From: an uncultured Candidatus Saccharibacteria bacterium
GTDB taxonomy: Bacteria; Patescibacteriota; Minisyncoccia; Phycocordibacterales; UBA918
Assembly (NCBI GenBank): GCA_964608605.1
Contig: CAZSOS010000002.1
Location: forward strand, 105,569-169,568
Direction of reading: 5' to 3'
DNA length: 64,000 bases
Part shown: positions 4,105-37,802 of the stretch, one piece after another
Numbering within the stretch: position 1 is the stretch's first letter
Layout: each line of letters starts with the position of its first letter
Notes under the pieces: model-generated
Told to the model about the DNA's origin: nothing
What the model saw: the letters and a program-made list of their open reading frames with translations, nothing else
The model's database searches: none
Made by a program: the position numbers and the translations under genes

Positions 4105-4398
4105 ATGATATTCACCGCCACCGTGAACGAAGCCTCGGGCTTCATCAGCGCCGCCGACATCGGAGCGGCCGAACGCTACGTGCTGGAGTTATTGGCCGGC
4201 AGAGGCATGGAGGGCGCGACCGACATCCACCGCGACGAAGTCAGTTCCAGTTTCTCGGTCGCCAGCCATACGATAACCATCAGGCCGCTGCCAGCGCCTA
4301 GCGACATCCATCCGTTCTCCGCCATTCAGGGCGGCTACACCCGATCGCGGGCGCGAAGAACGCGATACCACGACGACTTCCTCGATGATATATTGTGA
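4105..4398 (+). CDS. Hypothetical protein
   Basis: 97-aa ORF with AGGAGAG 8 nt upstream of the ATG. No recognisable motif. Confidence 0.3.
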   Translation: MIFTATVNEASGFISAADIGAAERYVLELLAGRGMEGATDIHRDEVSSSFSVASHTITIRPLPAPSDIHPFSAIQGGYTRSRARRTRYHDDFLDDIL

Positions 4399-4465
4399 GA
4401 GATCCAGACCAAAGAAGAACGGCCCGCGCGAAGCGCGGGCCGTTCCTGGTTACATGGTCTAACGC

Positions 4466-5083
4466 TCAGCAGCTGAATTCCCCCTCCCCGCACGGATCGA
4501 TGGGCCCGCCGACCTGCGGTTCTCCCGGCTCCGGACCGACGGTGATGAAATCCTCCGCCCGATGACCGTCCTCGCCGTTCCACATCGTCCAGTAGTATTT
4601 CCACTCGTACCAGCCGATGTTGAGGTGCTTGGTCGATAGGCCGTGCCGCGCCAGCGTGTCGCCCACCTTGCGGCTGGCCATGCAGGCGGCGCTGTAGCAG
4701 TAAGTGATGATGTCCTTGCCGGGATTGTCCTTAGCGATTTTCCGGAACTCCCGCACGATCCGGTCCTCCGCACTCTCTCCCGAGGCGTCGCTCGGCGCGT
4801 AATTCGGCACGTTGATGGCACTGGTGATGTGTTCCGCCTCGTATTCGGCGCTACTCCGGAGATCGACCAGCACGAACTGGTCGTGCGTGCCGCGCTGCAA
4901 AGCCGTCTTGATGTCGTAGGGACTGACCGAGGTCAGGTTCTCCACGCGGTAATACTCGGCCATGAGGTCGGCTTCAGTAGGCCGCGCGGCGGCATACCAG
5001 CCGGCGGCGAAGATAGCGGCACCCAGCACGGCGCCGGCGACGAAGGCTCCCAGGATCGTTCGATCTTTCATCATGTCGGTCAA
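4466..5083 (-). CDS. Rhodanese-domain protein, membrane anchored
   Basis: N-terminal TM segment, then a rhodanese fold (VLVDLRSSAEYEAEHI...ITYCYSAACMASRKV with the catalytic Cys loop CxxxxxR). Confidence 0.75.
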   Translation of the reverse strand: MTDMMKDRTILGAFVAGAVLGAAIFAAGWYAAARPTEADLMAEYYRVENLTSVSPYDIKTALQRGTHDQFVLVDLRSSAEYEAEHITSAINVPNYAPSDASGESAEDRIVREFRKIAKDNPGKDIITYCYSAACMASRKVGDTLARHGLSTKHLNIGWYEWKYYWTMWNGEDGHRAEDFITVGPEPGEPQVGGPIDPCGEGEFSC

Positions 5084-5097
5084 GGTTATCCGTTAAT

Positions 5098-5484
5098 TCA
5101 CGCTATCTTAGCACCACCCCGGCCCGGAGCCAGGTCATAGACCGCTTCCGGCTTCACGACCAGCACGCCTTTCAAGACGCGGTCGGGATGTTTGCCGCTA
5201 AGCCACTTAGCCGCCCGGTCGAACTCCTCCCCTTCCCGGCGGTAGTCCGCCCAACCTTTCACCTGCGCGCCGACGAAGCCTTTCCAGAAGGCCACCGAGA
5301 CGCGGTCGTCGCTTCCGAGGTTCGCGACCGAGCGGACCATGAAGCAGTCGCAGATGACGATCAGTCCGTTCTCGAGAAGCACCATCGACAACGGCACCAG
5401 GTTCGGTCCATCGGCGCCGTTGGTGGCCAGCGCGCGCTGATCGGCTTCGATCAATATGTTCATGACTTCGGTGGGCATTTCCAT
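5098..5484 (-). CDS. Pyridoxamine 5'-phosphate oxidase-like FMN-binding split-barrel protein
   Basis: ADQRALATNGADGPNLVPLSMVLLENGLIVI...VSVAFW is PNPOx-family-like. I placed the start at MEMPTEV (5484) so that the CDS does not run through the operator palindrome. Confidence 0.65.
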   Translation of the reverse strand: MEMPTEVMNILIEADQRALATNGADGPNLVPLSMVLLENGLIVICDCFMVRSVANLGSDDRVSVAFWKGFVGAQVKGWADYRREGEEFDRAAKWLSGKHPDRVLKGVLVVKPEAVYDLAPGRGGAKIA

Positions 5485-5493
5485 AGGTATGAT

Positions 5494-5519
5494 ATTATAT
5501 AGATAATTATCTATATAAT
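5494..5519. promoter_or_regulatory. Perfect 26-bp palindrome ATTATATAGATAATTATCTATATAAT in the divergent promoter region
   Basis: Its reverse complement is identical. It is flanked by direct CCATAG repeats and sits between the divergently transcribed PNPOx-like gene and the arsR-family gene. I take it as a candidate ArsR/SmtB operator. Confidence 0.5.
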
Positions 5520-5538
5520 AATCCATAGATGATCGTCT

Positions 5539-5862
5539 ATGCAATCAAAAGCTGGTGAAAAGACCTACAAGCGGCCCGACTGGGTCAAAAGCGGCGAGGA
5601 GGAGCTGTGTCCCGAGTGCTTCAAGGCCGTCGGCGACAAGAACCGTTACAAGCTGATCTGCCTGCTCGGCCGCTCCCCCGACGGACTGAACGTCACGGAG
5701 ATGACCCGGGAGCTCGAACTGGCGCAGCCGACCGTCACTCATCACCTCAACATCCTCCGGGAAGTGAACGCCGTCGACCGCGAAGAACAGGGCCGCGAAC
5801 GGATCTACAAGCTCAACCGCTCCGCCCATTGTTTCGAGGATTGTCAGATACCTTATAACTAA
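5539..5862 (+). CDS. ArsR/SmtB-family metalloregulator (winged HTH)
   Basis: The HTH is LAQPTVTHHLNILREVNAV. There is a CPEC pair near the N-terminus and a ...CFEDC pair near the C-terminus. It sits directly upstream of nirK. Confidence 0.85.
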   Translation: MQSKAGEKTYKRPDWVKSGEEELCPECFKAVGDKNRYKLICLLGRSPDGLNVTEMTRELELAQPTVTHHLNILREVNAVDREEQGRERIYKLNRSAHCFEDCQIPYN

Positions 5863-5867
5863 CCAGC

Positions 5868-7094
5868 ATGCAAACCACTTTGTCGCTCTTTTATTATCTG
5901 CTCTCCCAGGGTCTTGGCTTTGTGATCCTGACCGTCGCCCTGATCCTTTTCGTCATCTGGAGCATCAACGATCTCTACTCCAGGAAGACCATCGTGCTCT
6001 TATCGCTCATTTTGCTCGGCTGGATATTCTTCGGCCTCTTGCCGCTTGGCAATCTGGACTTCCGCTCCTACCCCTTCTCTCTCACCACCTACGGCCCCGG
6101 CGACGGTCCCATCCTGCCTTTCGGCAACATGCTCCGCTTCTTCCGCCAGGCTAACGACCTGGAGCGGGTCGCCGACATCGCCCGCGATCCGAACGAGGTG
6201 CCGCCGCCGATCGACCGCCGGGAACCGGCGGTCGTCGAGCTCAAGCTGACCGCCAAGGAAGTGGTGGCCGAGATGGCGCCCGGCGTCTACTTCAACTATT
6301 GGACCTTCGGCGGACAGGTTCCCGGCCCGATGCTGCGCGCCCGGGTCGGAGACACGGTGCGACTCACCCTGACGAACGACCCGTCGAGCCTGCATCATCA
6401 CAACATCGATCTGCACGCCGTCACCGGTCCGGGCGGCGGCGCCTCCGTCACCAACGTCGCGCCCGGCGAATCGAAGACCCTGACCTTCAAGGCGCTGAAT
6501 CCCGGCCTCTACGTCTACCACTGTGCTTACCCCAATATGGCCAATCACATGGCCCACGGCATGTACGGACTCATCCTCATCGAGCCGGAGGAGGGCCTGC
6601 CGGAAGTCGACCGGGAATTCTACGTCATGCAGGGCGAGTTCTACAGCACCGGCGGCCTAGGGAAACGCGGCCTGCAGGTCTTCGACGCCAAGGCCATGCT
6701 CGACAGCCGGCCGACCTACGTGGTCTTCAACGGCAAGGTGGGCGGCACGGTCGGCAACATGGAGGCGAAGGTCGGCGAGACCGCGCGCGTGTACGTCGGC
6801 AACGGCGGCGTGAACCTAATCTCCTCCTTCCATCTGGTCGGCGAGATATTCGACCGCGTCCACGCCGAAGGCTCGATCGGAAATTCCCCGCTTCAAAACG
6901 TCCAGACCACGCTGGTCCCGGCCGGCGGGGCCGCCATGGTGGAATTCGGACTCGAGGTACCGGGCACGTACGTAATGGTCGATCACGCGCTCTCCCGTGC
7001 CGACCGCGGCGCCTGGGGCACGTTGAACGTCTCGGGGACAGCCAGCAGCACCGTCTACGACGGCGTCCCGGGCGGCGGAGCGCACGGACATTAA
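5868..7094 (+). CDS. nirK: Copper-containing nitrite reductase (NirK) with an N-terminal membrane-anchor extension
   Basis: HNIDLHA is the type-2/type-1 Cu His motif. YVYHCAYPNMANHMAHGMYG gives the Cys-His-Met type-1 Cu ligand spacing. The two-cupredoxin length is right. The first ~70 aa form two predicted TM helices. Confidence 0.85.
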   Translation: MQTTLSLFYYLLSQGLGFVILTVALILFVIWSINDLYSRKTIVLLSLILLGWIFFGLLPLGNLDFRSYPFSLTTYGPGDGPILPFGNMLRFFRQANDLERVADIARDPNEVPPPIDRREPAVVELKLTAKEVVAEMAPGVYFNYWTFGGQVPGPMLRARVGDTVRLTLTNDPSSLHHHNIDLHAVTGPGGGASVTNVAPGESKTLTFKALNPGLYVYHCAYPNMANHMAHGMYGLILIEPEEGLPEVDREFYVMQGEFYSTGGLGKRGLQVFDAKAMLDSRPTYVVFNGKVGGTVGNMEAKVGETARVYVGNGGVNLISSFHLVGEIFDRVHAEGSIGNSPLQNVQTTLVPAGGAAMVEFGLEVPGTYVMVDHALSRADRGAWGTLNVSGTASSTVYDGVPGGGAHGH

Positions 7095-26714: not shown

Positions 26715-28238
26715 TTAGGTCTCCTGCACGTCCGGCAGCACCTTGACGGTGCGAGTGGCGCTGTCACCGCCGACGCAAGACAAAGTGAAAGTGACCTCTC
26801 CCAGCATCTGATGCGATACCGAACCGGTGCGGCCCGGGAGGGATGACAGGATAGTGGCCGCACCGGCCTTGATGGAACAACGGGCCGGGTCGTTGCTACC
26901 CAATTCCCAGCAGACGGGCACGTTCTCGCCTCTCAATACCAGATTTTTGCGGCACTCCGGCGACATGCTGGCATGATCGAAACTGGCTCCGGCGCCACCG
27001 CGTGTAGAGACGGTAACGCTGTCAGAGGCTTGCGTCGTGCCTTGTCCGTAGCACAGGAGTCCGAACGTGTGGCTGGTGTTGCCTATCGGCTCATCGAGCG
27101 TATTGTCGATGCCGGAGACGGCGTTGCCGGTGGCGAACCCGTAAAGCGGCGGCACGGCGGCGCAGGAAACAGTGTTAGCCGAACCACCTTGATTCCAACC
27201 CAGCTCGATCTGATCGGTAGGGTCGATGGTGAGGCTCTCGCTCCACGCCGTGGTACCGACCTTCCTCACCTGGAGATTGGCGGTCGGAGGCGGGTAGACG
27301 ACGGTCACGCTTTGCGTGGCCCAGTTGGCGGTCTCACCGCCTGGTCCGGCGCATTTGGCGGCGAAATTCCAGACACCGACGGTATCGAGAGTTTGGTAGA
27401 TACCGCTAGTACCACCACTGTTGGTCGATATGTCAGACGACCAACTGCCGCCAGGCGGCTGTCGTTGCAATCGACACGAAGTAGCGGGACCACCCACAGG
27501 TATATTAAGAATTTTATCCGGTCCGTAACTTACTAACACCTGACTGCCTTTCGTTATGGTGGCCGGTGAAACCGTCACCTTCGCTGAAGGCGCGGGAGGC
27601 GGACCGTATCGATATGCTGAAAAAGCCTTGCTGGTCGTCCCCCCAGGACCGGAACAAGTCACGGTATAGGTCATCCAAGAATCGTAAGCTGGCGTGTTCG
27701 CTGTCTGATAACCTGAGGTGGCCCCGTTACTTCCCGGAACGACGAAATTACTGCCCCAACAAGAAGTAGCGTTGTAACCATACCAGTACACTCGGAGACT
27801 TTGATTCCAATTCATGTAACGAGAAGTGGGAGCTTGGGCCCAACTGGCATCGAAGAGGTCGTGTTGAAAATCAATGACCGGAGCAGGAACAACGGGTGGC
27901 GGACAATAATACGTAGTGAAGTACAGCACCGGGGAATCGATGTCCCAGTTCTGCAACTGGGCCCAGCTTGAGGTATTGTGCGGCATGGTCACCGTCTGAG
28001 CCCCACCACAGGAACTTATGCCCCAGGGTCCGCCGGCGCTGGTGACCAAGCTGTAGTTCCAGGACTTGCAGGTGTTATTGACGTAGAAAGTGGCGTACAC
28101 GTAATTGCCGCCGGACACGCAGGATTGGCTGACCGTGAGATAAGGCTGCGGCTCGGCTTGGGCCGGAACCGGGTGTGACAAGGCTAAGACGCAAACGATC
28201 AATAGGAACGAGGCGCGAATGTAAGCGCGAACTGACAT
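26715..28238 (-). CDS. Secreted multi-module protein with a conserved C-terminal domain ending VLPDVQET
   Basis: Signal peptide, then repeated C-x-G-P-GG beta-sandwich-like modules. The last roughly 75 aa are homologous to the C-terminus of the 29928..31009 protein. Confidence 0.7.
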   Translation of the reverse strand: MSVRAYIRASFLLIVCVLALSHPVPAQAEPQPYLTVSQSCVSGGNYVYATFYVNNTCKSWNYSLVTSAGGPWGISSCGGAQTVTMPHNTSSWAQLQNWDIDSPVLYFTTYYCPPPVVPAPVIDFQHDLFDASWAQAPTSRYMNWNQSLRVYWYGYNATSCWGSNFVVPGSNGATSGYQTANTPAYDSWMTYTVTCSGPGGTTSKAFSAYRYGPPPAPSAKVTVSPATITKGSQVLVSYGPDKILNIPVGGPATSCRLQRQPPGGSWSSDISTNSGGTSGIYQTLDTVGVWNFAAKCAGPGGETANWATQSVTVVYPPPTANLQVRKVGTTAWSESLTIDPTDQIELGWNQGGSANTVSCAAVPPLYGFATGNAVSGIDNTLDEPIGNTSHTFGLLCYGQGTTQASDSVTVSTRGGAGASFDHASMSPECRKNLVLRGENVPVCWELGSNDPARCSIKAGAATILSSLPGRTGSVSHQMLGEVTFTLSCVGGDSATRTVKVLPDVQET

Positions 28239-29927: not shown

Positions 29928-31009
29928 TTAGGTCTCCTGGATGTCCGGCAGCACCCGGATGAGCATGCTACTGACGTTATTGCCGTCCTCGCAGTCGAGC
30001 GTGATCACCGTTTCGCCGATGGCCGTGAAGTTAGTGGTACCGGAATCCCGACTGAACGGACCAGCGATGACCACGTTACCAGCGCGAAGCACGCAGTTGG
30101 CGGGATCGCTGGTACCGACGTTCCAATCTATCGGCACCTCGGTCCCCTTCCGCACGATCACCGAAGGCGGTACCGTACTGCCTCCGCCACCATCGCAGCT
30201 GGTATTGGAGACGCACGCGTCCTTGCCGTACTCGACATCCACCTCAGTGTAAGCGGAAGCCACTGACTTCACCGCGTCCGGCAGGCCAGCGCAATCTATC
30301 CAGAACCTAGTCTTCTCCGATAGCGGCCCCGTAGGGTGACCAGAGGAATTATTCCGCGCTTTATTCCCACTCCAATTGATCGGTGACGCTAATTGACGGG
30401 CCGTACAGGTAGTCGTATTGGTAGAGTCCCAAGTTAGGCTTGAGGCTTCTGAATATTTCACCTTAGGTGGATTTGCCCAAATACTGACCGTAGGATTAGG
30501 TGGCGGAGGTGGGGGCGGAGGAGGTGGGGGCGGAGGAGGTGGAGCGCAACTTGGAGCCGTGAAAGTAGTCATCAGCTGGTCATGTTCCGGCCAAGACAAG
30601 GTCCAGTGCTGCACCTCTATGGTGTAGGTCTGATTATGCGGAACGACCACGGTGGTGGGACCTCCATACCTATTTATGCCAGTAACGATGCCGGCCTGAT
30701 GCACGATCAGGTTCAGCCAAGGTTCATACGTGGCCACGAAACCGGACATACTGATACTTAAGACGACGCGATCACTATCATAGCAATACGCGGACACGGA
30801 AGTGCGCGGCGGTTCAGCCACCGTGTAACAGTTAGCGGCGTTATATTCGCAAGGATGAGTATCGCCACTAAACGATGAAGCTGGTGACGTCGCGGTGTGG
30901 GCCGACGCGATATCGGCCGTCCACAGAACCATCGCCATGGTCAGCAAGAACACGCACCCCGCCGCGCGCGCTCCCCTTCCTTGATCCGTCATGTTTGAAA
31001 TAAACCGCA
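29928..31009 (-). CDS. Secreted protein with a P15 polyproline linker and the conserved C-terminal domain ending VLPDIQET
   Basis: Signal peptide (start chosen at MRFISN, 31009). An (APPPPPPPPPPPPPPPNP) tract is encoded by a GGNGG repeat. The C-terminal 75 aa are homologous to the 26715..28238 protein. Confidence 0.7.
30488..30535. repeat. GGNGGN simple-sequence tract encoding the polyproline linker
   Basis: ggtggcggaggtgggggcggaggaggtgggggcggaggaggtggag, read on the minus strand as CCN codons. Confidence 0.7.
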
Positions 31010-31152
31010 TGATATTTTTTAAGTGATAGGACTTTAGCCTAATACTAATGCATGAGGGCGGAAGTTCGGACCTCAAGCTGTGAATAATATCTTCAATTGT
31101 CCACAACCGAGAGGATTGTGCATAAATGAGCCCGCCCGTATAGTTTCTAATA

Positions 31153-32340
31153 ATGACAGTCAATAAAATACTCATATCAATAGCGTCGGTGATCGCGCTC
31201 ATTTTAATAGCGGCGGGAGCTTTCTGGTTCTGGCTTAATTACGCGCCAGCGCAGAACGCGCCGGAAACCGGAGACTCCCTGGAACACAACACCGAGCCCA
31301 TAACCATGGTCCCCGAACCGCTCACCGGCAATAGTCCGATATCTGACCTGGCCGACTTCGTCGCCGGCGCCATGGACGCCGAGGGCAAGTTCTTGCTGAG
31401 TTATCGTTGCGAAGCCCAGAACTGCGAACCAGTACCCTCCACCGAGGCCACGGCCTTCGGTTATTCCCTGCTGGGACTTATCGCCGGCGCTGACGCTGGT
31501 AACGACATAGAGCTGCGCCGCCAGGCCGACCTAGCTATCACCCGCGCGCTTAGGTTGTGCGGACAGGATGCCAACTCCTGCTTGTCGAACTTCTTCGCCC
31601 TCGAAGAATACTACGAACGCACCAACGCCAGTTCTTATAAGCAGGCGCTGGAAAAGGCCGGTCAACTGCTACTTACCACCAACGCCAGCCGCCTGGACGC
31701 CGTGGTGGGAGCCTTGATGTTCTACCCTTACAAAAAAATGGAGAGTCTCTACAAGATCACGGATGACGAAAGCTATCTGGAACTTCTGACTGTCGCCGCC
31801 GATACGGCTCTGAACAACTGGCCAGACCGGATCGAAGGCACCGCTATCTATGAGACTGCCGCCGGTCAGAAAGTGAATTACAACCATCTGCTGATAGCCA
31901 GCACCTTATTCATCCCCGCTTACAGAGCCACGAATGATGAGAAATATCTGCGCGCCGCGGCCGATCTCTTCAAGCGATCGGAGTTGGAGCAACATGCCTT
32001 GGGCCTGCGCTCCGAAAGAGGCGTCACGCTGCTTCTTAACAGCATCGAGGGTCTCTTGGATCTCTCCAAGATCGAGACCTTAAGCCAAGCCGACAGGGAC
32101 GCCTTCAGATCCTCGGCCGCGCTGATCATGAAGGACCTGTTCGGCTGGCAGTACGATGCTGCCGATCGCGCCATTGGCGATGGCACCGGTGGCCTCTTGA
32201 CTGGGGTGTCCGACGCTACCGAACCGGCCGGAGTGAACTACAAGAACATCAACCTCAACGGCTGGTTCGCCTATCTGCTCGCGGACCCTTCCATGGCCGA
32301 TATCGACCTGGTCATCTACAAAGCGCCGACCGGGTTCTAA
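31153..32340 (+). CDS. Membrane-anchored protein, paralog 1 (helical-repeat, possibly (alpha/alpha)-barrel-like)
   Basis: N-terminal TM segment. Shares LSYxCxxxxxxCxP, CxxDxxxCxxNFFxLxxYY and recurring D-x-[KS]-YL motifs with the 33070..34146 protein. Confidence 0.55.
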   Translation: MTVNKILISIASVIALILIAAGAFWFWLNYAPAQNAPETGDSLEHNTEPITMVPEPLTGNSPISDLADFVAGAMDAEGKFLLSYRCEAQNCEPVPSTEATAFGYSLLGLIAGADAGNDIELRRQADLAITRALRLCGQDANSCLSNFFALEEYYERTNASSYKQALEKAGQLLLTTNASRLDAVVGALMFYPYKKMESLYKITDDESYLELLTVAADTALNNWPDRIEGTAIYETAAGQKVNYNHLLIASTLFIPAYRATNDEKYLRAAADLFKRSELEQHALGLRSERGVTLLLNSIEGLLDLSKIETLSQADRDAFRSSAALIMKDLFGWQYDAADRAIGDGTGGLLTGVSDATEPAGVNYKNINLNGWFAYLLADPSMADIDLVIYKAPTGF

Positions 32341-32359
32341 CTCTAGACACGACCAGGCG

Positions 32360-32392
32360 AAACCCGAGGTGACACCGCCTCGGGTTTTTTTG
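32360..32392. terminator. Rho-independent terminator
   Basis: CCCGAGG...CCTCGGG stem followed by TTTTTTTG. Confidence 0.6.
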
Positions 32393-32432
32393 TTCCCGAG
32401 CCGCCGATTGGATAAAGCTGTATAATAGCGGC

Positions 32433-33011
32433 ATGATACGGCAAATTACCGGGACGGTGGTGTCCATGGGAGACAACTTCTTAGTGATAGACGTACGCGG
32501 TATCGGCTACCAGATCTTCACGCCGCGATCCTCGGCTTTCACCCTAGGCAGCGGCATCACCCTGCACACTCACCTAGCGGTGCGCGAGAACGCTCTGGAT
32601 CTCTATGGCTTCACCGTTAGAGACGACCTCTGGCTTTTCGAGCGCCTGATCGATCTGCCGAAGATCGGACCGAAGTCCGCCCTGCAGATAATGAGCCAGG
32701 CTGACAGCGCCATGATCCGCGAAGCCGCGATCAACAACGACCCCTCTCGCCTCTCAAAGATGTCAGGCATCGGCAAGAAGAGCGCCGAGAAGATCGTGGC
32801 CGGACTCAAGGACAAATTCGAAGGCCACGCGATGATCGCCGGCATGGAGACCGCGCCGACCAACGAGGCCTCCGACACCATCGACGCCCTCATCGCGCTG
32901 GGCTACCCGGCCCCTGAGGTGCGGCGCGTGGTCCTCGAAGTACTAACCGAACATCCCAATTCCGTTTCCGCCTCGGAGATCGTCAGGATGTCGCTGCGGC
33001 GTCTGTCCTAA
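32433..33011 (+). CDS. ruvA: Holliday junction branch-migration protein RuvA
   Basis: MIRQITGTVVSMGDNFLVIDVRGIGYQIF...is canonical RuvA domain I. Both HhH motifs are present. Confidence 0.9.
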   Translation: MIRQITGTVVSMGDNFLVIDVRGIGYQIFTPRSSAFTLGSGITLHTHLAVRENALDLYGFTVRDDLWLFERLIDLPKIGPKSALQIMSQADSAMIREAAINNDPSRLSKMSGIGKKSAEKIVAGLKDKFEGHAMIAGMETAPTNEASDTIDALIALGYPAPEVRRVVLEVLTEHPNSVSASEIVRMSLRRLS

Positions 33012-33069
33012 TGGTTAAATTGAAGAACCCGCGGACTTTATATGGGTATGTTAAATTACTTAAATAAAC

Positions 33070-34146
33070 ATGAAAAAAATTCTCTTCCTTATCCTTATCA
33101 TCGTCGTGCTGGCAACGGCCGGAATTGTCATCGCCTGGCAACAGCGTAAAGTCGTGGACGATGCTGTTACGGCCGCGCCCGCGACCGCCGGCGAGCTGGC
33201 CGCGAAGACCATCAAATTCATCGATGCCGCGCTTGATCCCGCGACGGAACGATACGATCTATCCTATACATGCAGCGAAGTGCAGAAGACCTGTAAGCCG
33301 CGCCACAACCCGGACATTCCACCGCACATGGGTTACGCCATCATCAGCCTGAGAGAGGTCGGACTAGCGACCGGCGATACCAGATTGGTCGAAAAATCGA
33401 AGACCATCCTGCACGATGCCATAAATAAGTGCGCCGACGATCCGCGCTACTGCGAATGGAATTTCTTCCCCCTCCATCATTACTACAAGGCCACCGGCGA
33501 CCAGAAATATCTCGACGCCATGCTGGCGGTCTCCGGGAACGTTACCGCGCCCAGGCCGGTCAGGGATCTCATCAAGGCCAACATACCAGTGAAATGGTGG
33601 CGGCTTTATGACGCCACCGGCGACGAGAAGTACCTCAAGCAGCTCACTGATCTGGCCGACGAACAGCTGCGGGTGTTCCCAGCCGAGAGACTTAACGATG
33701 ACCTGGTCTATCGCGACGGCCAGACCGACGTGCGTTCATACGACCTGCCGATGATCTGGGCGGTGTACATGCCGGCCTGGTTCGCCAGCCGGGACGAGAA
33801 ATACCTCGCGCCGGCGCGGGAATTCTTCGACGCCACCGACCTGGCCGCCAATACTTCCCTTTTCTTCGATGTCACCGCGACCGGAAACCTGCTGAAGGGA
33901 GTGGAGTCTCTCTTGAACGCCGCCGAGGCCATCCCCGAGCGCCGGGAGGCATATCGGAAAGAAGCGTTGGACATATTGCGCGTAGTCCTCCAAGAACGCC
34001 TGGACACGCCGGATCGAACCCTGGTAAACGGCGACCATGGCCTGTTGGTATCCCCCCATGAAAAGGAGACCAATATCCAAGGCTGGCTGACCTATACCCT
34101 GCTGGAGCTAGGCGACGAACCCTTGAAGCTGGAGGGCCTCTGGTGA
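33070..34146 (+). CDS. Membrane-anchored protein, paralog 2 (helical-repeat)
   Basis: Paralog of the 31153..32340 protein. Motifs GDQKYLDAM, GDEKYLKQL and RDEKYLAPA recur every 50-60 aa. Confidence 0.55.
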   Translation: MKKILFLILIIVVLATAGIVIAWQQRKVVDDAVTAAPATAGELAAKTIKFIDAALDPATERYDLSYTCSEVQKTCKPRHNPDIPPHMGYAIISLREVGLATGDTRLVEKSKTILHDAINKCADDPRYCEWNFFPLHHYYKATGDQKYLDAMLAVSGNVTAPRPVRDLIKANIPVKWWRLYDATGDEKYLKQLTDLADEQLRVFPAERLNDDLVYRDGQTDVRSYDLPMIWAVYMPAWFASRDEKYLAPAREFFDATDLAANTSLFFDVTATGNLLKGVESLLNAAEAIPERREAYRKEALDILRVVLQERLDTPDRTLVNGDHGLLVSPHEKETNIQGWLTYTLLELGDEPLKLEGLW

Positions 34147-35639: not shown

Positions 35640-37802
35640 ATGCCAATTAACACCCCTTACGCCCGCGCCGCCAAAAATTTATTGCCTTTGTTATTGATAA
35701 CCTCCCTCCTGTCGCCATCACTGCTTCCGGCTAGGATCCTAGCCGCGTCTAGTATCGACAACGGCTCCGAAAGTGCCGGAGCTAAAGGCAGCAGTCCGAG
35801 CGACAGCGGTAGCTATAGCGGCAGCGACTCAGGGACCACCGGGTTCGAGGGCTCACCTGAGGTAGGCCCCACAGCGGCGGCTCAGACATCAAACGACGCG
35901 GTGGCGACCGAAGTGGCTGCCACCGCCGGCCCCGGCATCAGCGTGACGCCGGTCGACGCCAGTTCTCCGCACGCTCCAGCGCCGGGAAGTAGCGTCAATG
36001 TCAACGGCGTACAAATGGGCGTGGAGGACGCGCGCGGGGCCTTGGACGCCATAAGCAAGTCCAATGGAGTAGCCGACGTCCAGGCGACCCTAGCCGCTTG
36101 GGCCGACCCTAAAGGCACCATCGAAGCGGGACAGGTCGTCGGACCGTATGGGCACGTCGGCCTCCCGGAGGCAGTGGCTCGAGAAACCGCCACGGTGCAG
36201 GCCGGAATAAACGCTATCTCCTTTGCCAACTCACTACCTACCGGAGTATTGGATCCAGGTCGGCTTGGTTACGACCCGAACAGCTGGAGCAACATCCAGT
36301 CACGACTGGAAGTGATCAACGTGGTCAGTGCTCCGGTGAGCAGGACTCAGACCGGACAGATCGAATACGCTAACGTAGTGGGAGTCGGCAAGGACGCTCA
36401 GGATAAAACTCAGACAAGTCCAGAGTATGAAACCAGGGTCCATACCAACGCGGACGTAGCCGCCAGAATGGCCGCGGCCGGTTTCAATCCTGACGGCTCT
36501 TTGCAAAGAGCGGTAACCATAGATTACGGGAATATAATGGGCGTCACCAAAGGAACCGTCAAAGATTATCAAGCCAATGGCACTCTCGACAGCAAGATCG
36601 CCATGGAGCAGAACATGATCGGCATGGCTCTCAACTCCAGCATAGATAAAGCCCAACTAGGACAAGTCGACCCTAACAGCATAGAGAATCACGGCAAGGT
36701 CGATAACCGAGACACCAATGGTGCTTTCGCTAAATCCCTAGACGACACGATCACCCCTGGTTTATGGGTGGACAGCAACCTCACCGGTAAGCAGGAACTG
36801 GCCATGAGTTATTACGCCAATATAGTCGGATATACTGCGAATCAAGCTGCCGGTATCATAGGTAATTTTAAAGCGGAGAGTAACCTGGACCATCTGGAAG
36901 AAGCGGCTGGCCGGGAGCGTTCCAGTGGCCTGGCTCAATGGAACGCTGCCGCGGCTGCCGGCGAACGCAGACAAGCACTGGAGGATTACGCTGGAGTGAA
37001 ATTTTCCGAGCAACTCGTTAACGGCAGACACACCTCAGGTCCGGGGGCTTTCACGCAACTAGCGTTCACCGTGGCTGAAATGGAAGGAAGATTGACGGGA
37101 CATAAAGACCCTCAGTCAGAAGCTGTGGGCCGCAGTTTCAACGCGAATCCGAATATGACGGCCGCTCAAGCTGCTGAAGAATTCCAAAATGGCTTTGAAC
37201 GGCCAGCTGACCGCTCTCACTCTATTGCCGCCAGACAGAACGGGGCAAGCGAAGCATTGACCGCGTACAACAACCTGGACCCAGGTCGGGAAAACTTCAC
37301 TACCGGTAGCGTATCCGGGCAGCCAGGACAAACCGGTGGTCAGGGCGGCAAGACCGGCAGTGACCAACCCTCGAGGCAAAGCGGGGGTTTTGGTCAGGTG
37401 GAATTCGGAGTCGGTGGATTTCGTGTTACCGTCGACACTGACAAGATCGCCGACCTATTTAGCAATATGTTCTCCGGGTCGGGAGGAGATGGAGGAGCAC
37501 CGGAATACACCGATCTGTCATTCACCGGTAGCGATGATACCGGAAATTCCCTGGAGCTGGAACGGGTCGATATCACCCCGGGCAGGCCCGGCATCTGCCC
37601 CGCCGGACCGGCCGAAGAAGGATTTTCATTCAACATAAAATTCCTCAACAAAGAACACACTGATCAGGTCTACAGCTGTAAGGGTCAGACCACGGCGGAC
37701 AACTTCAATATAGTCACGGCTTATCTCAAGAATTACGAAACCGATAACGTGCAAGATGTCGACGTACTGAGCAAGATGCGGGTCACTTCGGCCAAGTATT
37801 GA
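35640..37802 (+). CDS. Giant secreted protein (720 aa) with a lysozyme-like (phage-tail-lysozyme-type) peptidoglycan hydrolase domain
   Basis: The leader is MPINTPYARAAKNLLPLLLITSLLSPSLLPARILAASS. The internal domain has GIIGNFKAESNLD...GLAQWN..R...L, as in the phage tail lysozyme family. The C-terminus has a YSCKGQTT module. Confidence 0.65.
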   Translation: MPINTPYARAAKNLLPLLLITSLLSPSLLPARILAASSIDNGSESAGAKGSSPSDSGSYSGSDSGTTGFEGSPEVGPTAAAQTSNDAVATEVAATAGPGISVTPVDASSPHAPAPGSSVNVNGVQMGVEDARGALDAISKSNGVADVQATLAAWADPKGTIEAGQVVGPYGHVGLPEAVARETATVQAGINAISFANSLPTGVLDPGRLGYDPNSWSNIQSRLEVINVVSAPVSRTQTGQIEYANVVGVGKDAQDKTQTSPEYETRVHTNADVAARMAAAGFNPDGSLQRAVTIDYGNIMGVTKGTVKDYQANGTLDSKIAMEQNMIGMALNSSIDKAQLGQVDPNSIENHGKVDNRDTNGAFAKSLDDTITPGLWVDSNLTGKQELAMSYYANIVGYTANQAAGIIGNFKAESNLDHLEEAAGRERSSGLAQWNAAAAAGERRQALEDYAGVKFSEQLVNGRHTSGPGAFTQLAFTVAEMEGRLTGHKDPQSEAVGRSFNANPNMTAAQAAEEFQNGFERPADRSHSIAARQNGASEALTAYNNLDPGRENFTTGSVSGQPGQTGGQGGKTGSDQPSRQSGGFGQVEFGVGGFRVTVDTDKIADLFSNMFSGSGGDGGAPEYTDLSFTGSDDTGNSLELERVDITPGRPGICPAGPAEEGFSFNIKFLNKEHTDQVYSCKGQTTADNFNIVTAYLKNYETDNVQDVDVLSKMRVTSAKY

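Follow-up and report, generated by a model that had tools for sequence, protein, structure and literature searches.

The locus analysed here raises the question what two similar proteins, encoded on either side of a ruvA gene, do at the surface of a CPR bacterium. A life attached to host cells is assumed for CPR bacteria, whose surface proteins mostly lack an assigned function. All four open reading frames named in a preliminary description of the window (the whole 64 kb stretch of DNA that was analysed) were present as described. The part of the window considered here holds the following features:

31153..32340, + strand: paralog A, an open reading frame of 395 aa
32359..32388, + strand: terminator-like hairpin, a 13-bp stem with 7 G-C pairs followed by a T-run, 19 nt past the stop of A
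32433..33011, + strand: ruvA, 192 aa, with the Pfam domains RuvA_N, HHH_5 and RuvA_C
33070..34146, + strand: paralog B, an open reading frame of 358 aa
34184..35461, + strand: MurE-type Mur ligase, 425 aa, with the Pfam domains Mur_ligase_M and Mur_ligase_C, starting 37 nt after B
35640..37802, + strand: secreted protein of 720 aa with a Phage_lysozyme2 (murein hydrolase-like) domain (PF18013, E=2.9e-15)

Aligned over 326 aa, A and B are 27% identical with 44% positives (E=1e-27 after compositional adjustment). A recurrent TGDxKYL-like motif could raise such scores, so that low complexity or repeats might account for the similarity; alternatively, the two proteins might be open TPR-like solenoids. 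The chance of either is negligible, since our results already refute both. Judged from their sequences, A and B are real paralogs and not products of low-complexity bias, as had been proposed. Motifs of the T-x-D-x-K-Y-L type occur three times per protein (T157NASSYK, T203DDESYL and T260NDEKYL in A; T142GDQKYL, T183GDEKYL and S240RDEKYL in B). They are thus recurrent as first noted, at a spacing of 41-57 aa instead of the 50-60 aa given then. Each protein contains exactly four cysteines. All of them lie within two pairs that align between A and B, which bears out the shared Cys-pair region of the preliminary description, and these are 96-99% conserved among 123 family members:

31408-31425, + strand: first Cys pair of A, C86/C91
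31558-31581, + strand: second Cys pair of A, C136/C143
33271-33294, + strand: first Cys pair of B, C68/C75
33430-33453, + strand: second Cys pair of B, C121/C128

Compared with the relative L013, dN/dS was 0.12 for A, using a codon alignment that takes account of an in-frame TGA in L013, and 0.16 for as much of B as was available. Such low values indicate that both genes are functional and under purifying selection.

The fold was obtained from AlphaFold models, which have the following layout:

A: signal-anchor helix at ~3-30, low-confidence linker at 31-48, (alpha/alpha)6 toroid at ~53-395
B: signal-anchor helix at 2-32, (alpha/alpha)6 toroid at ~40-350

Their twelve helices close into a double barrel that carries long loops on one of its faces and short turns on the opposite one, such that at the fold level the models place A and B within the six-hairpin (alpha/alpha)6 toroid superfamily. 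Their best structural matches were GH88, GH76, GH105 and AGE-type epimerases. Of the two folds suggested initially, the toroid is therefore retained. A TPR or other open solenoid was rejected because TPR hits were absent from the Pfam search and the models superpose on closed barrels. In the models the TGDxKYL motifs sit at the short even-to-odd helix turns, on the face opposite the conserved polar residues.

How the toroid is placed with respect to the membrane can be judged from the N-terminus. Each protein has a single strongly hydrophobic 19-mer there (mean Kyte-Doolittle values of 2.76 and 3.26), which AlphaFold models as a helix, in line with the membrane anchoring claimed before. An N-terminal hydrophobic anchor is found in 115 of the 123 family members, and the charges flanking it favour an N-in orientation in 86 members versus 9. 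This bias, the four conserved cysteines, a DsbA-like gene near family loci in relatives and one member fused to extracellular Cys-rich and Ig-like repeats together suggest that the toroid lies outside the cell, held at the cytoplasmic membrane by one N-terminal helix. The domain fusions of the other longer family members were uninformative. The two Cys pairs probably form local disulfides. The first pair is directly opposed across a hairpin in both models (CX6C in B, CX4C in A) and would be a cross-strand disulfide in a beta-hairpin, while the second would be a CX6C disulfide at the alpha3-to-alpha4 junction. Together they would pin down the two leading long loops, which lie on the face of the toroid where related enzymes have their active site.

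Homologs were hard to find. Neither A nor B reached the threshold of any Pfam or NCBIfam model, with NCBIfam giving no match whatever, and single-sequence searches of PDB sequences returned only noise (E of 0.3 or higher). A word-indexed homolog search gave a single relative of A and, when run with an A-clade profile, only three proteins, such that an exhaustive HMM search of 1.84 billion representatives was needed. It provided 217 clusters, in which all named sources are CPR. A genome-locus search with tighter alignment gave 2 genome loci and 9 metagenome loci. A and B are thus members of a small family, not described before and restricted to CPR. Both proteins bear its signature: the N-terminal membrane helix, a CX4-6C and a CX6C pair, a W/Y-D motif whose Asp is invariant, and a Lys that precedes the last helix.

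Across the family, conservation is confined to the four cysteines, D312, acidic residues at E279 and D322, K332 and several aromatic residues (B numbering). In 123 divergent sequences D312 is 100% invariant and the two other acidic positions are 82-87% conserved. A conserved His was absent, the maximum being 39 of the 123 sequences in any column. In the model of B the conserved residues of the putative pocket face are K175, Y214, E279, D312 (nt 34003-34005), D322, K332 and W339; the strongly conserved polar ones, K175, Y214, E279, D312, D322 and K332, are all located in or beside the long odd-to-even helix connections. The invariant Asp sits in the alpha11-to-alpha12 loop, near the C-terminus. 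Its counterpart in A is D335 (nt 32155-32157), and E299 and K364 are conserved in A as well. A is without the third acidic residue (T345 at this position) and without H86, E129 and W130, which are conserved in the B clade. Since the paralogs keep different pocket residues, they probably differ in specificity or act as a pair.

This conservation bears on whether A and B are enzymes at all. As a heterodimer or singly, they could be non-catalytic surface proteins that merely bind glycans or other ligands, e.g. for attaching to a host or scaffolding the envelope. We regard this as rather improbable, since one invariant Asp and two conserved acidic positions on the loop face, kept in very divergent sequences, form a pattern more typical of catalysis than of binding. 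In our preferred reading, which we hold with about even confidence, A and B are ancient tandem CPR toroids, membrane-held on the outside of the cell, that cleave or transfer a glycan of the cell envelope or a host-derived glycan. Catalysis would proceed via loop-face carboxylates, namely the invariant Asp (D312 in B, D335 in A) together with E279 in B or E299 in A, with D322 as a further one in B. Substrate binding would fall to K332, K175 and aromatic residues.

The genes downstream of the pair are compatible with an envelope-polysaccharide role, which had been put forward from the neighbourhood and which we likewise consider plausible. The murE-like gene and the murein-hydrolase giants described there were found. 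The Mur ligase scored 322.6 bits with TIGR01085 (cut-off 257.3) over profile positions 70-471, being without the usual N-terminal domain, and is 72% identical to the Mur ligase of L015. A 1241-aa protein of the window is homologous in its C-terminus to the Peptidase_M15 giant of L015. MurE, the lysozyme-like protein and the giant hydrolase lie close by in the window and in the syntenic L015; a murE near a family member was seen in these two loci only. Most relatives instead have genes nearby for a small Cys-rich peptide, 7-TM Cys-rich proteins (without a Pfam or PDB match), a TPR protein and a PQQ-type beta-propeller. None of these is a carbohydrate gene, which counts against the glycan-enzyme reading.

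We therefore turn to the arrangement of the pair in relatives. At least 9 further lineages carry the tandem pair as well, which points to an ancient pairing of A and B. The gene between them differs: a small exported Cys-rich peptide is encoded in the slot of ruvA in seven of these lineages, and in one the slot is empty. ruvA lies between the paralogs only in the window and in L013, a 78%-identical relative with the same A-ruvA-B order, and near a family member only in these two and in L015. Of the arrangement proposed for checking in relatives, the pair is hence conserved and the ruvA placement is not, which agrees with ruvA being an insertion. By its sequence ruvA is a genuine Holliday-junction branch-migration gene (TIGR00084 equivalog, 156.9 bits versus a cut-off of 85), the housekeeping gene it was taken for; it is unrelated to A and B and an incidental neighbour in the window lineage. 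The terminator-like hairpin suggests that A is transcribed apart from ruvA and B; candidate -10 boxes stand immediately 5' of the start codons.

The peptide gene of the relatives, which is sometimes accompanied by genes for YcaO, a dehydrogenase and paired 7-TM Cys-rich proteins, allows for other functions. The toroids may be accessories of an exported Cys-rich peptide system of the RiPP or bacteriocin type, with an extracellular role in binding, processing or maturing the peptide or a role in immunity to it, the peptide gene having been lost or moved in the window lineage. This appears unlikely to us. Both paralogs are retained under purifying selection in the window and in L013, and no small peptide, 7-TM protein or YcaO was found in the 64 kb of the window. 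A Zn-ligand set is lacking, because the family has no conserved His and no extra Cys. YcaO and LanC chemistry occurs in the cytoplasm, whereas the toroids are predicted to be outside, and most of the loci with the peptide have no YcaO in their flanks. It is similarly doubtful that an undescribed CPR system, centred on a small exported peptide whose tail is Cys-rich, has the pair as its extracytoplasmic arm. The toroids would then bind, process or attach the peptide at the cell surface; in the window ruvA would have replaced the peptide gene, and the pair would serve a peptide encoded elsewhere or have been repurposed. A literature search on CPR six-hairpin proteins and CPR YcaO found nothing relevant.

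What is gained for the window is modest, namely one new family within a fold superfamily that is well known. More broadly, it defines a CPR-restricted six-hairpin surface family with a clear signature and candidate catalytic residues, usually present as an A-type/B-type pair beside a gene for a small Cys-rich peptide. Should its members prove to be glycan-active, they might remodel the symbiont's own wall, or else attack the envelope glycans of the host or harvest them. Were the peptide their target, the family would point to a new system for peptide maturation or surface display.

Among known toroids, several enzyme classes can be compared by their defining residues. It is highly improbable that A and B are LanC-like cyclases, AGE epimerases or isomerases, GH127-type Cys-glycosidases or enzymes resembling prenyltransferases or terpene cyclases, also because the predicted extracytoplasmic location offers no cofactor supply. 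A conserved His is required by AGE enzymes and by the Zn sites of both LanC and the prenyltransferases, and its lack excludes LanC-type and epimerase-type chemistry. LanC and LanCL have the alpha/alpha toroid in common with A and B, whose relatives adjoin small Cys-rich peptides and, in two loci, YcaO-type RiPP enzymes; the Cys, Cys-His zinc site that the cyclases conserve in the C-terminal half of their toroid was absent, with no Cys outside the two N-terminal pairs. The AGE enzymes (cellobiose 2-epimerase, 4z4j; YihS, 7ag4) are cytoplasmic and soluble and use a catalytic His pair; B scored 13.5 bits with PF07221 (cut-off 23.4). Of the families named at the outset, glycoside hydrolases and epimerases hence stand as structural matches, while identity with LanC or the epimerases fails on these residues. 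No DxDD motif was present. For GH127/GH146 (PF07944) B reached 16.4 and A 11.8 bits against 24.9, and the Zn-Cys3-Glu site with its catalytic Cys does not fit cysteines that form two local pairs in the N-terminal third. YPO2471 of Yersinia pestis (PDB 7tem) is an uncharacterised exported protein to which a profile search of PDB sequences found no similarity, and it offers no lead on a mechanism.

The GH76 alpha-1,6-mannanases, including the fungal membrane-tethered Dfg5/Dcw1 pair (PDB 6shm, 4v1r, 6ry0), are near structural relatives. The profile hit to 4v1r covered only 86 residues (173-258) of hairpin-turn motifs, neither protein hit PF03663, and an adjacent Asp-Asp pair is not conserved in the family: of D123-D124 in B, the second is Asp in only 54 of the 123 members, and the family alignment shows no conservation at position 123. 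GH88 (PF07470) gave 21.0 bits for A and 14.3 bits for B against a gathering score of 26.6; the best GH-model scores were 21 bits for A (26.6) and 16.4 bits for B (24.9), both under the curated cut-off, which speaks against the glycan-enzyme reading. The partial GH88 hits spanned 65-125 residues in inconsistent hairpin registers. Falling on the repeated turn motif, with different hairpins of A and B on one GH88 region, they are silent on the active site. Compared with the GH88 unsaturated glucuronyl hydrolases (PDB 1vd5, 3wiw) and GH105 YteR/YesR, identity is 10-14%, the scores stay under the Pfam gathering score, and A and B are without a polysaccharide-lyase context. The catalytic Asp residues of GH88 and GH105 sit in the N-terminal half (D88/D149 in UGL, D143 in YteR), whereas the invariant Asp of A and B is near the C-terminus, and A and B differ further in carrying a membrane anchor and two conserved Cys pairs.

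The two proteins A and B, ruvA and a Mur ligase are encoded by four open reading frames that lie head to tail on the forward strand:

31153-32340, +, A, 395 aa
32433-33011, +, ruvA, 192 aa, with RuvA_N, HHH_5 and RuvA_C (TIGR00084, 156.9 bits; cut-off 85)
33070-34146, +, B, 358 aa
34184-35461, +, MurE-type Mur ligase, 425 aa (TIGR01085, 322.6 bits)

By these matches ruvA is genuine. The profile of the Mur ligase was matched only from position 70 on, such that the usual N-terminal Mur ligase domain is missing; the same short form is found in the distant relative L015 (72% identity to the ligase of the window). The subsequent gene encodes a 720-aa product with a Phage_lysozyme2 domain. Elsewhere the window holds ordinary chromosomal genes (dnaA, polA, tyrS, class A PBP, ribonucleotide reductase, pilM and seven tRNAs).

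The preliminary description took A and B for paralogs with a common Cys-pair region, and both points are borne out. The proteins share 27% identity and 44% positives over 326 residues (composition-adjusted E of 1e-27), and their four Cys (86, 91, 136 and 143 in A; 68, 75, 121 and 128 in B, with no others in either protein) align with each other. Recurrent motifs of the D-x-KYL type were found as well, three in A (T157NASSYK, T203DDESYL, T260NDEKYL) and three in B (T142GDQKYL, T183GDEKYL, S240RDEKYL), at a spacing of 41-57 aa and not of 50-60 aa as originally given. Each N-terminus carries a single very hydrophobic segment, which forms a long helix in the AlphaFold model.

Both proteins were modelled using the family alignment as input (pLDDT 92.9 and pTM 0.85 for B, 87.3 and 0.82 for A). 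In the models the membrane helix leads over a short disordered linker to twelve main helices, whose connections are long and short in turn.

Structure-comparison scores of the two models
GH88, 1vd5: B 21.9, A 21.8
GH88, 3wiw: B 20.7, A 22.0
YPO2471, 7tem: B 21.9, A 22.0
GH76, 6shm: B 20.5, A 20.7
GH105 YteR, 1nc5: B 19.6, A 19.0
Cellobiose 2-epimerase, 4z4j: B 19.2, A 18.8

For the top matches about 280-290 residues were aligned at 3.1-3.3 Å, squalene cyclases (about 15-16) and LanC-type domains (14-15) scored lower, and Foldseek concurred with GH88 and GH76 on top (TM about 0.55-0.6). Both proteins thus have the fold of a closed (alpha/alpha)6 six-hairpin toroid. Of the "(alpha/alpha)-toroid or TPR-like fold" proposed initially, the toroid stands in both models, while these closed six-hairpin matches rule out a TPR solenoid.

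Placed by means of the model secondary structure, the T-G-D-x-K-Y-L motifs occupy the short even-to-odd helix turns (residues 143-144, 184-185 and 241-246 of B), which suggests a structural hairpin-turn signature. Such a signature would explain the weak, partial Pfam matches to several six-hairpin families.

Pfam scores of A and B, in bits
GH88: A 21.0, B 14.3, cut-off 26.6
GH127: A 11.8, B 16.4, cut-off 24.9
C5-epimerase: A 17.4, B 12.2, cut-off 23.3
GlcNAc 2-epimerase: A no hit, B 13.5, cut-off 23.4

The hairpin register of these matches is inconsistent, with A 149-274 and B 178-254 falling on positions of about 37-161 and 40-104 of the GH88 profile. A profile-to-PDB sequence search gave GH76 4v1r as the sole significant match (E=3e-6), covering just the hairpin turns.

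In six-hairpin folds the active-site face is built by the long odd-to-even connections. According to the model of B, all conserved features other than the turn motifs would sit there: C68/C75 in a beta-hairpin between helices 1 and 2, C121/C128 at the junction of helix 3 to 4, K175 at the start of helix 6, Y214 in a hairpin between helices 7 and 8, E279 in helix 10, and D312, D322 and K332 between helices 11 and 12. In an alignment of 123 sequences (B numbering) the four Cys are 96-99% conserved, D312 is invariant (123/123), E279 and D322 are acidic in 87% and 82%, K332 is kept in 89%, K175 is basic in 63%, Y214 is Tyr in 79% (aromatic in 82%) and W339 is aromatic in 80%. The first Cys pair faces exactly across the hairpin in both models (strands 65-69/74-78 in B, 83-87/90-94 in A) despite the differing spacing, CX6C and CX4C respectively, and fits a cross-strand disulfide. 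A conserved His was not found in this alignment, the best column holding His in at most 39 of the 123 sequences, which rules out both a LanC zinc site and AGE-type catalytic His residues.

Carbohydrate-active enzymes are the most likely reading of A and B, with about an even chance of being correct; we infer this activity from the fold family, the invariant Asp with two further acidic positions, and the aromatics on the loop face. That toroids so equipped serve purely in binding appears quite improbable.

The N-terminal anchor is present in 115 of the 123 members, and the flanking charges point to N-in, C-out for 86 members versus 9. Outside topology and disulfides are well-supported readings for A and B. 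In one 720-aa metagenomic family protein (P0153) the C-terminus continues into Cys-rich repeats (...DG.C....E....CP.DC type) and Ig-like domains of extracellular type, which fits a location at the cell surface.

The family is rare. When 1.84 billion representatives were searched exhaustively with the profile, only 217 clusters emerged at E <=1e-3 and 67 at <=1e-30, nearly all of 340-400 aa. All named sources are CPR/Patescibacteria (Candidatus Paceibacterota, Giovannonibacteria, Saccharibacteria), and the remaining members come from metagenome contigs. The A clade is marked by a conserved signature of its own (WP, GWQYD, NYK). It is without the H86, E129 and W130 that the B clade has, and D322 is often missing as well.

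Loci of relatives (L numbers) were retrieved through protein identity or a pattern scan. In seven lineages the B-like gene directly follows another member of the family: Giovannonibacteria (L001, L003, L004, L024); L005, L006 and L019; L008, L009 and L018; L010; L011; L016; and L017. In L016 the upstream gene scored 230 bits on A vs 87 on B by BLAST and the downstream gene 345 bits on B vs 107 on A, so that the A-type and B-type copies form orthologous groups; for several lineages a neighbour-joining tree supported this grouping. In Giovannonibacteria the pair seems to have arisen by a duplication of its own.

The placement of ruvA between the paralogs, as first described, holds in the window and in L013 only, which has 78% DNA identity to the window and the same order of 424-aa gene, A, ruvA and B. 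In all seven lineages a gene of 75-113 aa takes this place, and in L014 the paralogs directly adjoin (111-nt gap). ruvA is thus an incidental, lineage-specific neighbour. Between the window and L013, dN/dS came to 0.12 (A), 0.18 (ruvA) and, for that part of B which was available, 0.16; A and B are under purifying selection. Codon 27 of the A orthologue in L013 (about 902-904), within the membrane helix, is an in-frame TGA vs TGG (Trp) in the window, and the gene caller therefore began at a downstream Met. This single case may reflect an error in sequencing, or else a genuine truncation by which the anchor is lost.

The small peptides between the paralogs begin with a membrane helix and carry a conserved junction, A-[HYM]-A-[DE]-[AT]-[PG], and a hypervariable Pro/Asp/Gly/Cys-rich tail that terminates at or near Cys (...GDGDGDGDGDGDC, ...SSCSDSDCGC, ...SSCGDCGACGSCDGGSCGAGDCGG...). 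In a wider set the junction reads A/V-[HYM]-A-[DE]-[AT]-[PG], similar to an A-x-A signal-peptidase site.

Small peptide genes beside or between toroid genes
L005, 5699-5926, -
L008, 3639-3905, -
L010, 2566-2805, -
L011, 5623-5958, -
L016, 2037-2366, -
L017, 2033-2284, -
L003, 5716-5973, +
L015, 6561-6992, +

This recurrent Cys-rich neighbour is the main ground for doubting the enzyme reading and speaks for a peptide-linked role of the toroids, a reading that is still rather unlikely. Four of the loci also carry paralogous proteins of about 7 TM, rich in conserved Cys, that bracket the toroid pair.

Genes of the 7-TM proteins
L005, 3239-4465 and 7057-8358
L008, 1101-2354 and 5020-6339
L010, 1-1305 and 3960-5279
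L017, 1-786 and 3410-4774

They share the motifs CWP[WY]F..C, RCDPY and FDHS.NG.PFYR.VDV and gave no Pfam or PDB match. The arrangement looks as if a module of two genes, toroid and 7-TM, had been duplicated. Other genes near the toroid genes of relatives encode a TPR protein, a PQQ-type beta-propeller and a DsbA-like protein.

L015 holds one A-clade toroid gene only in 12.6 kb and shows partial synteny to the window: besides the Mur ligase it contains homologues of ruvA (53% identity), of the Lnt-like protein (42%), of the 424-aa protein and of the C-terminus of the giant hydrolase. Ahead of its toroid gene stand a gene for a 143-aa peptide, whose long tail is of Gly/Cys/Ser, and a YcaO and a nitroreductase-family gene (the latter two at 4397-6548). 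Since these genes are accompanied by such a precursor, they look like a RiPP cluster. Flavoprotein, YcaO and nitroreductase genes also lie beside the B orthologue of L007 (3016-5979). A search of the window for homologues of the small peptide, the 7-TM protein and YcaO found none.

After A a strong terminator-like hairpin (32359-32388, +) with a 13-bp stem and 7 G-C pairs is followed by the T-run TTTTTTTGTT, so that transcription of A is probably separate from that of ruvA and B. In front of A, of ruvA and of murE a TATAAT-like box stands 12-19 nt before the ATG, with no Shine-Dalgarno next to it. Together with the hairpin this makes it doubtful that A is co-transcribed with ruvA and B, and an operon-based link of B to murE is weak. 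Many genes of the window show the same arrangement (starts 31153, 32433, 34184, 37818, 14367 (-) and others), which points to mRNAs without a leader or with a very short one, and to separate promoters for individual genes, in this organism.

Upstream of A lie three further genes:

26715-28238, -, secreted Cys/Pro-rich protein, 507 aa
28315-29883, Lnt-like membrane protein (TIGR00546, E=4.5e-12, below cut-off)
29928-31202, -, secreted Cys/Pro-rich protein, 424 aa

Neither of the two secreted proteins, encoded either side of the Lnt-like gene, matched Pfam. Common to both is a C-terminal domain of about 76 aa (36% identity, E=2e-14) with a VLPD[IV]QET-stop end; this common end may be a signal for sorting or processing. 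The homologues of the 424-aa and Lnt-like genes are neighbours in L015 too. The longest frame of the 424-aa gene, whose product contains a 15-Pro run, overlaps the start of A (31153) by 50 nt; its true start is probably an internal Met right before a signal-peptide-like segment (MRFISNMTDQGRGARAAGCVFLLTMAMVLW...).

The proteins A and B thus belong to a new, unannotated family inside a well-known fold superfamily. What sets the family apart there is its membrane anchor, two Cys pairs of disulfide type, a conserved Asp/Glu/Lys set of its own, the pairing of A and B types, and the neighbouring peptide.
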